4,837 nucleotides of DNA, from positions 1-4,837 of the IMG/VR virus record IMGVR_UViG_2660238126_000002, one strand, 5' to 3'. The translations under genes and the position numbers were made by a program. Positions 124-4,837 of the stretch are shown in pieces; within the stretch, counting starts at the first letter, position 1, and every line of letters starts with the position of its first letter. This stretch comes from a virus. Taxonomy: Duplodnaviria > Heunggongvirae > Uroviricota > Caudoviricetes. A model generated the notes under the pieces. It had not been told where the DNA came from, ran no database searches, and saw nothing but the letters and a program-made list of their open reading frames with translations.

Positions 124-474
124 TTATAACGCCATCTGAGCCATTTTCTGATAATTCAATCTGTCTGCTGTATCACCGGGCAAGTGGTATTGTTTATTAC
201 GATAAAAAGCGGTGTCAGTAATCATTACGGCGGGAATATCGTGTTGCCAATAATTCAGGTGGTCAGAGAAATCAATACCGGGAATAAACCATGGGGCATT
301 CATAGAATAAACAGATAAATCCCGGGATGATAACAATGCCGTTTTTACCTGACGAACGGCGTTGATATCCTGTATTCTGCCGACCAGGCAATAAAGTCCC
401 CCCGATCGGGATAAAGCCAGGACATTGCGGGTAAGGGTAATCCTGGCTACCAGGCGCAGAGTCGTAATAGCCAA
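124..474 (-). pseudogene. M28-family zinc peptidase-like gene, C-terminal segment
   Basis: Translation contains NVLALSRSGG and then DFSDH...IPAVMITD...YHLPGDTADRLNY, matching the conserved C-terminal motifs of M28 aminopeptidases as I recall them. The expected catalytic core between the two motif groups is missing. Family assignment is by motif recall, not alignment. Confidence 0.4.
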
Positions 475-815
475 TCGGGGACGCCCTGCGCGGTAACTCT
501 GGCACCGCTACTGACAAAGAACTCTTTTATATACTCTACGGACCTATTCAGATTATCAATATTGTCGGCATTACGTGGATGCACAGTTTGTGTAAGATAA
601 CGAACTGTTTTTTCTAATTGCTCAGGACTGACGTGTCGGGGCGTTGGCGATAATGCAGTGACCCAGGGTTGGTAAAAATAATCAGAGGGAGTGAAATCAG
701 AAATAATATAACAAAAGGAGCGCGAAAATACCGTCAGCATGGTATTGCGGGCGGTCATCGTCTGCTGGTTGGTGATCCAGAAGGTTTTATAACCCGCCTG
801 TTTCATCATGTTCAT
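447..815 (-). pseudogene. Same M28-like gene, N-terminal segment in a different frame
   Basis: Translation ...RYLTQTVHPRNADNIDNLNRSVEYIKEFFVSSGARVTAQG resembles the N-terminal region of M28 peptidases. The frame is open upstream to 923 with no SD before the ATG at 815, and it overlaps the 124-474 ORF in another frame, implying a frameshift near 447-474. Confidence 0.4.
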
Positions 816-1882: not shown

Positions 1883-2248
1883 GGCCANNTCTNCNTCTCG
1901 CATGTTCTGCATGATGATGCGACGGCGGCGGTAAGCCGGGTCCGCCAGATTCTGCGGATCTTCATCCGGCAGGCGACGCAGGGTCATCTGCGGATTCACC
2001 TCATGCTTGGGTTTGACATATCCCGGCGTAAATTCAGAGGTGGAGCCGCCACGGGAACGGATAACCTCACCGGAAACAATCGGCGAAACGTACAGCGCCA
2101 TGTTTACCAGTCCCGGAATTTGTGAGAGATAGACTTTCTCCGTGGTGAAGGGATAGCTCTCACGGAAAAAGAGACGCAGAAACAGCGGATCAAACTTAAA
2201 TTTCTGCTCATTTGCCGCCAGCAGCTGGGCGGTTGTGTACATCGACAT
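1883..2248 (-). pseudogene. E: Lambda-type major capsid protein gene, 5' fragment (first ~122 codons)
   Basis: MSMYTTAQLLAANEQKFKFDPLFLRLFFRESYPFTTEKVY...PAYRRRRIIMQNMR matches the N-terminus of lambda gpE. Similarity stops after about codon 122, at the N-containing stretch 1881-1895, and the frame continues into unrelated GC-rich sequence. Confidence 0.9.
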
Positions 2249-2268
2249 AAAAAAATCCCGTAAAAAAA

Positions 2269-2282
2269 GCCGCACAGGCGGC
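2269..2282 (-). other. Short hairpin in the D-E intergenic region, followed by a T-run on the coding strand
   Basis: Minus-strand read is GCCGC-ctgt-GCGGC then TTTTTTT (plus-strand A-run 2262-2268), ending about 14 nt before the E start codon. No SD is visible for E. Confidence 0.3.
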
Positions 2283-2303
2283 CTTTAGTGATGAAGGGTA
2301 AGG

Positions 2304-2636
2304 TTAAACGATGCTGATTGCCGTTCCGGCAAACGCGGTCCGTTTTTTCGTCTCGTCGCTGGCAGCCTCCGGCCAGAGCACATCCTCATAACGGAACGTG
2401 CCGGACTTGTAGAACGTCAGCGTGGTGCTGGTCTGGTCAGCATCAACCGCCAGAATGCCAACGGCAGTACCGTCGGTGGTGCCATCCCACGCAACCAGCT
2501 TACGGGTGGAGGTGTCCAGCATCAGCGGGGTCATTGCAGGCGCTTTCGCACTCAATCCGCCGGGCGCGGTTGCCGTATGTGCCGGGTCACTGTTGCCCAG
2601 CGGCTGGTAATGGGTAAAGGTTTCTTTGCTCGTCAT
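2304..2636 (-). CDS. D: Lambda-type head decoration protein, 110 aa, intact
   Basis: [56 protein letters not shown]...TAISIV is near-identical to lambda gpD as recalled. SD AAGGGA lies 5 nt upstream of the ATG at 2636. The 9-nt gap to the upstream stop and 55-nt gap to E match the lambda spacing I recall. Confidence 0.95.
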
Positions 2637-2645
2637 AAACATCCC

Positions 2646-3041
2646 TTACACTGGTGTGTTCAGCAAATCGTTAACGGCATCAGATGCCGGGTTACCTGCA
2701 GCCAGTGGTGCCGGTGCCCCCTGCATCAGACGATCCAGCGCAGTGTCACTGCGCGCCTGTGCACTCTGTGGTGCAGCTGCCAGAATGCGGCGGGCCGTTT
2801 CCACGGTCATACCGGGGGTTTCGGCCAGCACACGTGCCTGTTCTTCGCGTCCGTGAGCTTCCTCACAGTTGAGGATCCCCATAATGCGGCTGTTTTCTGC
2901 CGCAACCGCAGCGGTGATCTGCGCGTTCACGTCCGGCTGCGCCGCGCTGGCGTTTTCGCCCTCCGTCGCTTGCACCACGTCAGTAACGTCAGCCTGCGAA
3001 GCAGTGGCTGAAACAGTTGTTGATTGAGTCTCTTTGGTCAT
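2646..3041 (-). CDS. Nu3: Lambda-type scaffolding protein, nested in-frame in the C-like ORF, 131 aa
   Basis: Internal ATG at 3041 is preceded by a strong SD (AGGAGG, then gcgaa). Product MTKETQSTTVSATASQ...NDLLNTPV is Ala/Gln-rich and scaffold-like. It contains GGATCC at 2873-2878 and GGTTACC at 2690-2696, which I recall as lambda landmark sites. An alternative in-frame ATG exists at 3251. Confidence 0.8.
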   Translation of the reverse strand: MTKETQSTTVSATASQADVTDVVQATEGENASAAQPDVNAQITAAVAAENSRIMGILNCEEAHGREEQARVLAETPGMTVETARRILAAAPQSAQARSDTALDRLMQGAPAPLAAGNPASDAVNDLLNTPV

Positions 3042-3617
3042 TCGCCCTCCTGAGAGACGGGATTTACGTGCATCCAGTGCATCACGCATAACGGTGATCG
3101 CATCGGTGCTGTTGACAAGTTCATCAGCCAGTCCGGCATCAATGGCCTCCTGACCGCTGTACATTGCAGCCTCGGTATCCAGCACAGCCTGCACGGACAG
3201 GCCGGTATATGCCGACACCTTCTGCGCAAACATCCGGCNGGTTGCATCCATCCGGGNCTGCAGTGTCTCGCCGTCATAGGTAATCGGGTTACCGCACGCT
3301 TCCGGGTTCCAGCCCAGCAGAGCCTTAAAGAGCATCTGCCGGACATCGTCCACCACATCATACGAGGCAAACTGACCGCGCTCATCACGCCCGTTACTCA
3401 GTATGACAACCACGGAGAAGCCCTCTTTCAGCTCCTGCCAGTAGTCGGTCTGGCTTTTGTTTTCTCCCGGAGAGTCATCACCCGGTACCACATACGCCGC
3501 CGGGAGTCTCAGCTTTCCGACCTCCGGCAGATTTTTGAACTGTGCCGCGCCTGCTACCCGGTTTTCAAAATACGGGCAGCGGGCACGCAGCGCAGCAATA
3601 ACAGGCGTCAGTTTCAT
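2646..3617 (-). CDS. Chimeric ORF: non-lambda N-terminal ~110 aa joined in-frame to the C-terminal part of a lambda C-like (S49 prohead protease) gene plus Nu3
   Basis: Continuous 323-codon frame. Residues from about 110 onward (...ETLQ.RMDAT.RMFAQKVSAYTGLSVQAVLDTE...) match the lambda gpC C-terminus. Residues 1-110 (MKLTPVIAALRARCPYFENRVAGAAQ...) carry no S49 catalytic-core motif that I can recognise. The ATG at 3617 overlaps the upstream ORF stop (ATGA, 3614-3617). N bases sit at 3239 and 3257. Confidence 0.6.
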   Translation of the reverse strand: MKLTPVIAALRARCPYFENRVAGAAQFKNLPEVGKLRLPAAYVVPGDDSPGENKSQTDYWQELKEGFSVVVILSNGRDERGQFASYDVVDDVRQMLFKALLGWNPEACGNPITYDGETLQXRMDATXRMFAQKVSAYTGLSVQAVLDTEAAMYSGQEAIDAGLADELVNSTDAITVMRDALDARKSRLSGGRMTKETQSTTVSATASQADVTDVVQATEGENASAAQPDVNAQITAAVAAENSRIMGILNCEEAHGREEQARVLAETPGMTVETARRILAAAPQSAQARSDTALDRLMQGAPAPLAAGNPASDAVNDLLNTPV

Positions 3618-4018
3618 CTGTGTCGTCGCTCCGGCTTCAGTGATTTACGCAATTCCCGCGCCAGAAAATAGCGTGTCCAGCTGCGGTTCTTTTCAAGCGT
3701 TTCCACCATAAAGTTATTACGTGGAGCCAGCCGCCAGCCGCTGCCACCGGATGCACCACGATGATGACTACGACGACGTTTTGCTCCTCCCCGGACACCA
3801 AAAAACAGAAACGCCGGATAGAAGTCACCAGAGATCATCCGGTTCCCCTTCCCGTTGCGCTGGTTAGGGGCAATGCGTGTCATAAAACCGGCTCGCTTTT
3901 TACTGGCTCTCGGCACCATGTAACCAATCGAACGAGCCAGGCGTCCGGTCTGATAACCGGGGTTTTCACCCGGTGCCGACCGCGCACGGCGCATCACCAG
4001 CCGACGGGCATCACGCAT
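3614..4018 (-). CDS. Arg-rich basic ORF, 134 aa, unknown function; possibly the 3' remnant of a longer phage gene
   Basis: Only open frame on this strand here, with E. coli-like codons (cgt, ctg, ccg, ggt). Stop overlaps the downstream start (ATGA). No SD before the ATG at 4018, which sits exactly where the sequence becomes AT-rich. Frame is open upstream only to 4084 with no further ATG. Confidence 0.35.
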   Translation of the reverse strand: MRDARRLVMRRARSAPGENPGYQTGRLARSIGYMVPRASKKRAGFMTRIAPNQRNGKGNRMISGDFYPAFLFFGVRGGAKRRRSHHRGASGGSGWRLAPRNNFMVETLEKNRSWTRYFLARELRKSLKPERRHR

Positions 4019-4034
4019 ATGACGCTGACCAATC

Positions 4035-4370
4035 GTGACAAACGATAGATTTATAAAATCTTCATTACCGATCCCTGAACTATACTATCTACCACAGAGA
4101 AAATTTACTGGGATTTCTTTAAAATACAAAGGAAAAATCCCATATACACCAGCTAGTTCAAAAATGAAATGGGATATAGTACAGTCTCTTTTGCTGAAAC
4201 AAACATCCTTATTTATATCAAACAACACAATGCAAGGAAGTAGGAGGAAAAACGAGTTCATCATAAACTCAATAATATGGAAAAAAAATGAAACCTCAAA
4301 TTGCGAATATTCAATCGAAGGAGGTGTTTATGCTCTGTTTAGGTATACTGGTAAGCCTGCTGGCTATTAG
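4035..4370 (+). CDS. AT-rich ORF (111 codons from GTG), possibly the 3' remnant of an acquired gene
   Basis: Stop TAG at 4368-4370 is immediately followed by an intrinsic terminator. There is no SD at the GTG start or at internal ATGs. Lys/Asn/Ile-rich, with no recognisable domain. Confidence 0.2.
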   Translation: MTNDRFIKSSLPIPELYYLPQRKFTGISLKYKGKIPYTPASSKMKWDIVQSLLLKQTSLFISNNTMQGSRRKNEFIINSIIWKKNETSNCEYSIEGGVYALFRYTGKPAGY

Positions 4371-4497
4371 ACCCTGCTTCGGCGGGGTTTTTTTATGGGC
4401 ACGGTGCGGGGTGAGTTGTCGGATGCGCTTCGCTTATCCGACCTACAGGGGAGGATATTGTAGGCCCGGTAAACGTGGTGCCATCGGGCAAAATTAG
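4330..4497 (+). CDS. Candidate small ORF (55 aa) with a near-perfect ribosome-binding site
   Basis: AAGGAGGTG at 4318-4326, 3-nt spacer, ATG at 4330. Product begins MLCLGILVSLLAI (hydrophobic). The frame runs through the terminator hairpin and both REP units, which argues against a conventional gene. Confidence 0.2.
   Translation: MLCLGILVSLLAIRPCFGGVFLWARCGVSCRMRFAYPTYRGGYCRPGKRGAIGQN
4371..4394 (+). terminator. Rho-independent terminator, plus strand
   Basis: Stem ACCCTGC / GCGGGGT (7 bp, one G-U pair) with a TTCG loop, followed by a 7-T run (4388-4394). Confidence 0.6.
4416..4489. repeat. Two REP-like palindromic units in opposite orientation (BIME-like)
   Basis: Unit 1 around 4418-4442 is GTCGGATGCGCTTCGCTTATCCGAC, followed by CTAC. 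Unit 2 around 4460-4489 is GTAGGCCCGGTAAACGTGGTGCCATCGGGC. Both resemble the enterobacterial REP consensus (GCCGGATGCG...CTTATCCGGCCTAC) as recalled. Confidence 0.6.
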
Positions 4498-4533
4498 CTC
4501 GGAGTAACAGGTTTTGATTATTTAAGGAAGTGA

Positions 4534-4728
4534 TGGTGGTGGGGGAAGGATTACTCAACGCTGCGCGCTTCGCCCTTCGGGTCGTTGCCTGCGGCAACGC
4601 TCTCTCGCTGCAAAATGAGTCAGGGAAAACGACACAATCAGGCGCTTATCGCCCTGGCGAGACGACGCTGCGACGTTCTGTTCGCCATGATGCGCGACGG
4701 GACTTTTTATACCCCGCAGGCGTCATAA
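4534..4728 (+). mobile_element. Probable 3'-terminal remnant of an IS110-family transposase gene
   Basis: The frame ending at TAA 4726-4728 encodes ...[34 protein letters not shown]. The spacing GK-9-AR-10-RDG and the hydrophobic pattern match the conserved C-terminus of IS110/IS116/IS902 transposases as I recall it. There is no start codon or SD, and no upstream transposase body in the window. Confidence 0.4.
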
Positions 4729-4837
4729 CATGCTTGACAACTTAATAGGGGTCCCCCGCTTCAGCCCCGTAAAACGCATCTGACTCCCGCACAACACGCA
4801 CTTCAGCGGGTCAACCTTTAGTAACCTCTGATACATC

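Follow-up and report, generated by a model that had tools for sequence, protein, structure and literature searches.

An ISEc20 right-end fragment beside a REP pair in an Escherichia coli draft contig: a probably artefactual juxtaposition

The 3' end of the IS110-family element ISEc20 lies close to a pair of REP units in a draft contig of Escherichia coli. This closeness is very probably coincidental and not the outcome of a REP-targeted insertion, because the fusion that brings the two together, at 4610/4611, is most likely non-biological. We infer that the ISEc20 end and the chromosomal spacer block carrying the REPs were very likely joined artefactually. The window, that is, the whole stretch of 4,837 nt that was analysed, is the entire contig CCBV01000687.1 of the draft assembly GCA_000936365.1. 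The first-pass annotation had described 4416-4728 as the decayed 3' remnant of an IS621-like, IS110-family transposase gene, adjacent to the REP units that such elements prefer as targets. Both features do lie inside that span, and a 3' remnant of an IS110-family transposase is indeed present, but the IS-derived sequence starts at 4610/4611 and not at 4416, and the element is ISEc20, which is related to IS621 only distantly.

A mosaic contig and its narI-tyrV spacer block

Judged by its matches, the contig is composed of no fewer than 12 unrelated E. coli pieces, and no contiguous cover of more than 29% of the window was found among complete genomes or PLSDB plasmids. The tail of the contig (4045-4837) resolves into four unrelated blocks with sharp borders when compared with 5,426 complete E. 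coli genomes and by local blastn. The features are:

1-719: yfbL-like chromosomal locus, 719 nt, 100% identity
720-864: cptA-like piece
876-1518: plasmid HTH/Rpn region
1515-1695: interior of prfC, 181 nt
1696-1885: interior of phnP, 190 nt
1883-3273: lambdoid head genes E'/D/S49 protease
3260-4044: part of a contractile-tail (myovirus-type) prophage with neck and tail-terminator genes
4045-4368: interior of a plasmid-borne helix-turn-helix protein gene, 99.4% identity to the enterotoxigenic E. coli (ETEC) plasmids pTW10690 and p600468
4368-4610: narI-tyrV spacer block, 243 nt, 100% identity to positions 3001-3243 of the reference chromosomal locus (local blastn)
4369-4398, plus strand: intrinsic terminator downstream of narI, a hairpin plus T-run (terminator scan)
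4417-4446, plus strand: REP1
4460-4490, minus strand: REP2
4534-4610, minus strand: 3' 77 nt of the RtT sRNA (tyrT/tyrV operon repeat unit), Rfam RF00391, cut off at 4610
4610-4611: point at which RtT gives way to internal ISEc20 sequence
4612-4725, plus strand: ISEc20 transposase residues 361-398, stop codon at 4726-4728
4729-4752, plus strand: ISEc20 non-coding right end
4753-4837, minus strand: target flank of ISEc20, a C-run (4753-4757) and then an IS91-family (ISEc37-like) transposase fragment

The core-gene pieces (the yfbL-like locus, prfC, phnP and the narI-tyrV spacer) are single-copy and far apart in E. coli genomes, and in the contig they are interleaved with plasmid sequence and with two different prophage modules. 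Three of the joins coincide with clusters of Ns, at 871-875, 1881-1896 and 3239/3257. In an exact-product look-up, CCBV01000687.1 is the only contig on record with the junction-spanning ORF 447-815 (minus strand), and the product of another junction-spanning ORF, 4035-4370, has no exact record.

Two further observations concern the contig as a whole. The 323-aa ORF at 2646-3617 (minus strand), a look-alike of the lambda C/Nu3-type S49 protease, is a hybrid: its head-gene homology ends at about 3273, the sequence from 3260 belongs to the other prophage module (a hypothetical protein and a phage tail terminator), and Ns at 3239 and 3257 mark where the two meet. As for the source, the best matches of 1-719 and of the RtT block are to ETEC strain 120899 (100%), and the plasmid piece is 99.4% identical to plasmids of ETEC strains 600468 and TW10690. 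Because the best matches are ETEC strains and plasmids, they suggest that the source isolate was an enterotoxigenic E. coli.

The spacer block has a homologue in the reference chromosome that begins 18 nt past the narI stop codon, and the REP pair and RtT are nothing unusual in this narI-tyrV spacer. REP1 (TGTCGGATGCGCTTCGCTTATCCGACCTAC) is a palindromic unit with a CTAC end, which matches the published E. coli REP GCCTGATGCGCTACGCTTATCAGGCCTACG (PMC11208160) at 22 of 25 aligned positions and, as DNA, is predicted to fold into the expected stem-loop. REP2 (GCCCGATGGCACCACGTTTACCGGGCCTAC) is inverted and more degenerate, with the same architecture as REP1. The two units lie tail to tail with 13 nt between them, extragenic and 3' of the narI terminator, a narI-tyrV location that is also seen in reference genomes, while the K-12 RefSeq record has no repeat feature annotated at this site. 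By similarity to published REP sequences, the pair at 4417-4490 is a REP/BIME, and here the first-pass annotation was right. Like the REP/BIME elements of E. coli, the pair consists of imperfect palindromes of about 30 nt with CTAC/GTAG ends, which lie in inverted orientation to each other in an intergenic region just past a terminator; unlike them, it has a degenerate second unit.

The target of IS621 in REPs is ATCAGGCCTAC, with a CT core (PMC11208160), and a scan for this 11-mer finds a near-match in each unit. These are ATCCGACCTAC at 4436-4446 in REP1, with 2 mismatches, and ACCGGGCCTAC at 4460-4470 in REP2, with 1 mismatch to ATCGGGCCTAC. Both near-matches are unoccupied and uninterrupted, and both REPs are intact.

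The remnant had been called adjacent to the REP units. The REP pair is certainly nearby, but positions 4491-4610 intervene, and the RtT 3' end that they include had been overlooked. The RtT fragment scores 49.7 bits against RF00391, for which the gathering score is 45, and it is 100% identical to the RtT annotated at 3167-3298 of the reference chromosomal locus. Within it, 4534-4552 repeats 19 nt of the tRNA-Tyr 3' end, and the K-12 repeats also match the fragment in local blastn. Rfam reported the alignment as full-length (4534-4649), but its 5' third (4611-4649) falls in ISEc20, where the alignment is poor; genuine RtT is confined to 4534-4610, and the remainder of the alignment is spurious. 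Like the 178-nt repeat of tyrT-tyrV (rttR-tpr in K-12), the fragment has the identical sequence and lies above the Rfam gathering threshold; unlike the repeat, it keeps just the 3' 77 of about 132 nt. No tRNA gene was found in the window by ARAGORN, the tRNA-Tyr-like 19-mer being a repeat-borne 3' end only. Since the RtT copy is truncated at 4610 and the window is without a tRNA-Tyr gene, this copy is a fragment and not a functional member.

The ISEc20 fragment and its two junctions

Positions 4610-4762 match the 3' end plus right end of ISEc20 with 98.7% nucleotide identity over 153 nt. Identity ranges from 96.8 to 98.7% among the copies listed; 1,563 genomes match 4600-4837, a count that also takes in matches to the IS91-family piece. 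PGAP annotates the element as "IS110-like element ISEc20 family transposase", and it belongs to the IS110 group of the IS110 family. The last 143 nt of ISEc20 are present in the window, or about 10% of the roughly 1.45-kb element. They encode the final 38 residues of the 398-aa transposase with 38/38 amino acid identity. The count of approximately 35 codons given in the first pass is thus 38 codons plus the stop codon, and its description of the frame as a C-terminal tail only was accurate.

These residues lie past both Pfam domains of the transposase and contain no catalytic residues. PF01548 (DEDD RuvC-like), found at residues 14-168 of intact ISEc20, and PF02371 (Transposase_20, with the conserved serine), found at residues 277-358, are both missing from the window. 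Pfam searches of the ORFs 4585-4725, 4530-4742, 4288-4494, 4370-4597 (minus strand) and 4726-4836 (minus strand) returned nothing meaningful; the remnant draws a blank because of its short length and its position outside the domains, and its identity as ISEc20 is based on near-identity to that element. When the window was compared with six intact copies by blastn, 4610-4762 was the only match, and the left end of about 227 nt had no counterpart in the window. The fragment is inert, because it is without both the bridge-RNA-encoding left end and the two catalytic domains. It had also been proposed that the element had decayed in place. The 98.7% nucleotide and 100% amino acid identity to live copies instead indicates a truncated element, not a decayed one.

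The right-hand boundary of the fragment was located by seeking out intact copies and comparing their ends, as the first-pass annotation had proposed, and the six copies fix it at 4752/4753. The non-coding right end reads ...CTTGACAACTTAATAGGGGT, and ISEc20 homology stops at ...AATAGGGG(T), exactly as in the six aligned copies. In the window, a C-run target follows the right terminus ...CTTAATAGGGG, as it does at other insertion sites of this element: the homology to the IS extends exactly as far as the terminus AATAGGGGT, then CCCCCGCTTCAG... follows, and the right flank begins CCCCCG. The flank itself (4753-4837) is 98.8% identical to positions 6862-6946 of plasmid pTW10690. In this uninterrupted homologue, a run of 17 C occupies the position of the junction (about 6947-6963), beside an IS91-family remnant. 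Because of the exact terminus, the C-run and the 17 C in the uninterrupted homologue, the right junction looks like the product of a genuine ISEc20 insertion whose target was a poly-C tract adjoining an IS91 remnant. It is the only junction of ISEc20 itself that is visible in the window. The exact sequence joining the ISEc20 right end to the IS91 flank has zero matches in GTDB genomes and JGI metagenomes, and therefore the right junction with exactly 5 C is also unique to this contig. The 17-C homopolymer, which lies beside the IS91-family remnant on ETEC plasmids at the position of the window's ISEc20 right end, may be a preferred landing site of ISEc20.

The right end has two other features of its own. 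At 4750-4752, the right end closes with the bases TC, where the six intact copies have CA or CC, and this TC variant is an exact match to the internal left-end segment TAATAGGGGTC. In addition, the right end contains a perfect, outward-facing TTGACA hexamer at 4734-4739. In a circle junction, this hexamer would sit 18 nt upstream of a TACTTT located at the start of the left end. A junction promoter has been described for IS110 elements, and the arrangement of TTGACA and TACTTT resembles it. In the window, TTGACA faces the IS91 flank and has no good -10 hexamer.

The left join, at 4610/4611, is of a different kind. It is internal to both partners (codon 360/361 of ISEc20 and the interior of RtT), whose sequences stand side by side with a 1-nt overlap (G), and neither a C-run nor a REP is present there. 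When a 101-nt query across the join was run against 5,426 complete E. coli genomes, no match spanned the join, not even with sensitive blastn; the two halves of the query were matched separately only, in 5,280 genomes. An exact 32-mer across the join has no counterpart in either the 185,579 GTDB representative genomes or the JGI metagenome contigs. The 4610/4611 join is probably non-biological.

Target and putative guides of intact ISEc20

The six intact copies that were aligned interrupt rtcB, a tail tape-measure gene, cah, a DUF1266 gene and others. Intact ISEc20, of about 1.45 kb, has a non-coding left end of about 227 nt before the ATG, an ORF of 398 aa, and a right end of about 25 nt after the stop codon, which ends ...CTTGACAACTTAATAGGGG(CA/CC). 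C-runs flank all six copies, and no REP was found at any of the six insertion sites. At cah, both an empty and an occupied allele could be compared. The empty site, GGCTGTCCCCCCCTCC, has a run of 7 C, and the occupied site shows a duplication of CC: the empty allele reads GGCTGTCCCCCCCTCCAG, and the occupied allele reads ...GGCTGTCCC, then the IS, then CACCCCCCTCCAG. The target of ISEc20 is therefore a C-run, of which two C are duplicated as the core.

IS110-group elements encode a bridge RNA in their non-coding left end (PMC11208160). The left end of ISEc20, read from the record of one intact copy (892-1122), contains four segments with matches of interest. The segment ACTGCCCCC is the same sequence as the left target flanks, and GGGGGGTGA is complementary to the right-hand C-run. 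The segment TAATAGGGGTC is the same sequence as the right-end terminus, and GGTAAC is complementary to GTTAC at the start of the left end. Based on these matches, ACTGCCCCC and GGGGGGTGA (for the target), together with GGTAAC and TAATAGGGGTC (for the donor), are consistent with bridge-RNA guides and can be regarded as candidates. When the left end is folded by minimum free energy (MFE), the two guide candidates, C-run and G-run, pair with each other, a result that neither confirms nor refutes a bridge-RNA architecture. No Rfam family matches the element, searched as left end, CDS and right end of one intact copy (850-2400). Literature searches turned up incidental mentions of ISEc20 only, and no citation of the assembly accession in the papers covered. 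Presumably like other members of the IS110 group, the parent ISEc20 would first be excised to a circle, and bridge-RNA-guided recombination would then take place between the ISEc20 donor (RE-core-LE) and the target.

IS621 and several other IS110 members target REPs (PMC11208160; PMC1525189). Like full-length ISEc20, IS621, the bridge-RNA-guided recombinase element of E. coli, belongs to the IS110 family and has the PF01548 plus PF02371 architecture, and in both the non-coding left end is long and the right end short (for IS621, PMC11208160). On the other hand, the relationship between the two is only distant: a phmmer comparison of ISEc20 with IS621 (PDB 8wt6) gives E = 1e-14, with a significant alignment over the C-terminal domain only. 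The targets differ as well, with a CT core in REPs for IS621 and a CC core in C-runs for ISEc20. No IS end abutting the REP target ATCAGGCCTAC/ATCGGGCCTAC at the CT core was found in the window, and the IS base closest to the REP pair is 120 nt away from it and internal to the IS.

Origin and meaning of the juxtaposition

Taken together, 4611-4837 would be genuine DNA of the source strain, comprising the ISEc20 end and its right junction with the poly-C tract and IS91 remnant of an ETEC-type plasmid. This piece would have been fused at 4610/4611 to an unrelated piece of 243 nt from the narI-tyrV spacer, which brought with it the terminator, the REP pair and the truncated RtT. The fusion most likely arose in a chimeric read, clone or assembly, like about ten other joins in this 4.8-kb draft contig. 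An artefact is favoured because core-gene bits of 180-240 nt butt-joined to plasmid and phage pieces would be an implausible natural structure. Against an artefact, there are no Ns at either 4368 or 4610, and the same contig contains the natural-looking ISEc20/IS91 junction. IS-rich ETEC plasmids hold natural mosaics of IS fragments.

As to the route, adjacent pieces share just 1 nt at 4368 and at 4610. Misassembly by de Bruijn repeat collapse is not favoured as the sole cause, since such 1-nt overlaps are unlike collapse. Either chimeric inserts or reads, or errors of gap filling, could have produced the joins.

Among the alternatives, the one that survives best, while still unlikely, is that the RtT/ISEc20 junction is a real rearrangement, in which a copy of the tyrT-repeat region became fused to the interior of a plasmid-borne ISEc20, through a deletion or by illegitimate (microhomology-independent) recombination. 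The natural appearance of the neighbouring ISEc20/IS91 junction, the lack of Ns at 4610 and the many truncated IS pieces on ETEC plasmids all speak for such an event. However, it would need a second blunt join at 4368, into the interior of the plasmid HTH gene, and internal prfC and phnP pieces are present in the contig too. Moreover, the junction is absent from the 5,426 genomes and from two large collections (the GTDB representatives and the JGI metagenomes), and 4610 has no C-run resembling an ISEc20 target. More specifically, it is improbable that a real off-target or illegitimate recombination cut ISEc20 internally and captured the 243-nt tyrT-repeat/REP spacer on an IS-rich plasmid of an ETEC-like strain.

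Far less credible is the reading that an IS621-like IS110 element inserted into the REP pair by target preference and then decayed to its 3' end. It draws on the known REP targeting by IS621 and other IS110 members (PMC11208160; PMC1525189) and on the near-matches to the IS621 target in the REPs of the window. Yet neither REP is broken and the two match the empty chromosomal locus with 100% identity, the IS piece is from ISEc20, whose insertions lie at C-runs with a CC core, and the boundary between the IS and the REP block falls at an internal IS position within RtT, 120 nt away from the REPs. The genuine right end of the element is directed away from the REPs, into the IS91-family remnant, and the fragment, with 100% amino acid identity, has no mutational decay. 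Hence the intact REPs, the C-run targets and the internal IS position at the join are at odds with the suggestion that the adjacency fits a preference for REP targets.

Finally, ORF 4585-4728 (47 codons) and ORF 4530-4745 (71 codons) are open frames with start codons, but the idea that either is an intact small gene unrelated to transposases can be set aside, as 38 of the 47 codons of the former are identical to the ISEc20 C-terminus and its first 9 are antisense RtT, neither ORF has a Pfam match, and neither junction-spanning product is on record in an exact look-up of a 153-billion-gene index.

ISEc20, the REP units and RtT are all catalogued, and there is nothing new among them. The fragment is uninformative about bridge-RNA recombinases or REP targeting, because it is without the bridge-RNA region and the catalytic domains. 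If the RtT/ISEc20 fusion were true, the contig in its entirety would preserve a natural mosaic of short fragments from chromosome, plasmid and phage. The case also calls for caution, in that small contigs of fragmented drafts can juxtapose unrelated elements and so give rise to false accounts of target preference. For the parent element, the C-run sites with a CC core and the left-end matches to target and donor would fit the bridge-RNA model for an IS110 member of E. coli that does not target REPs.
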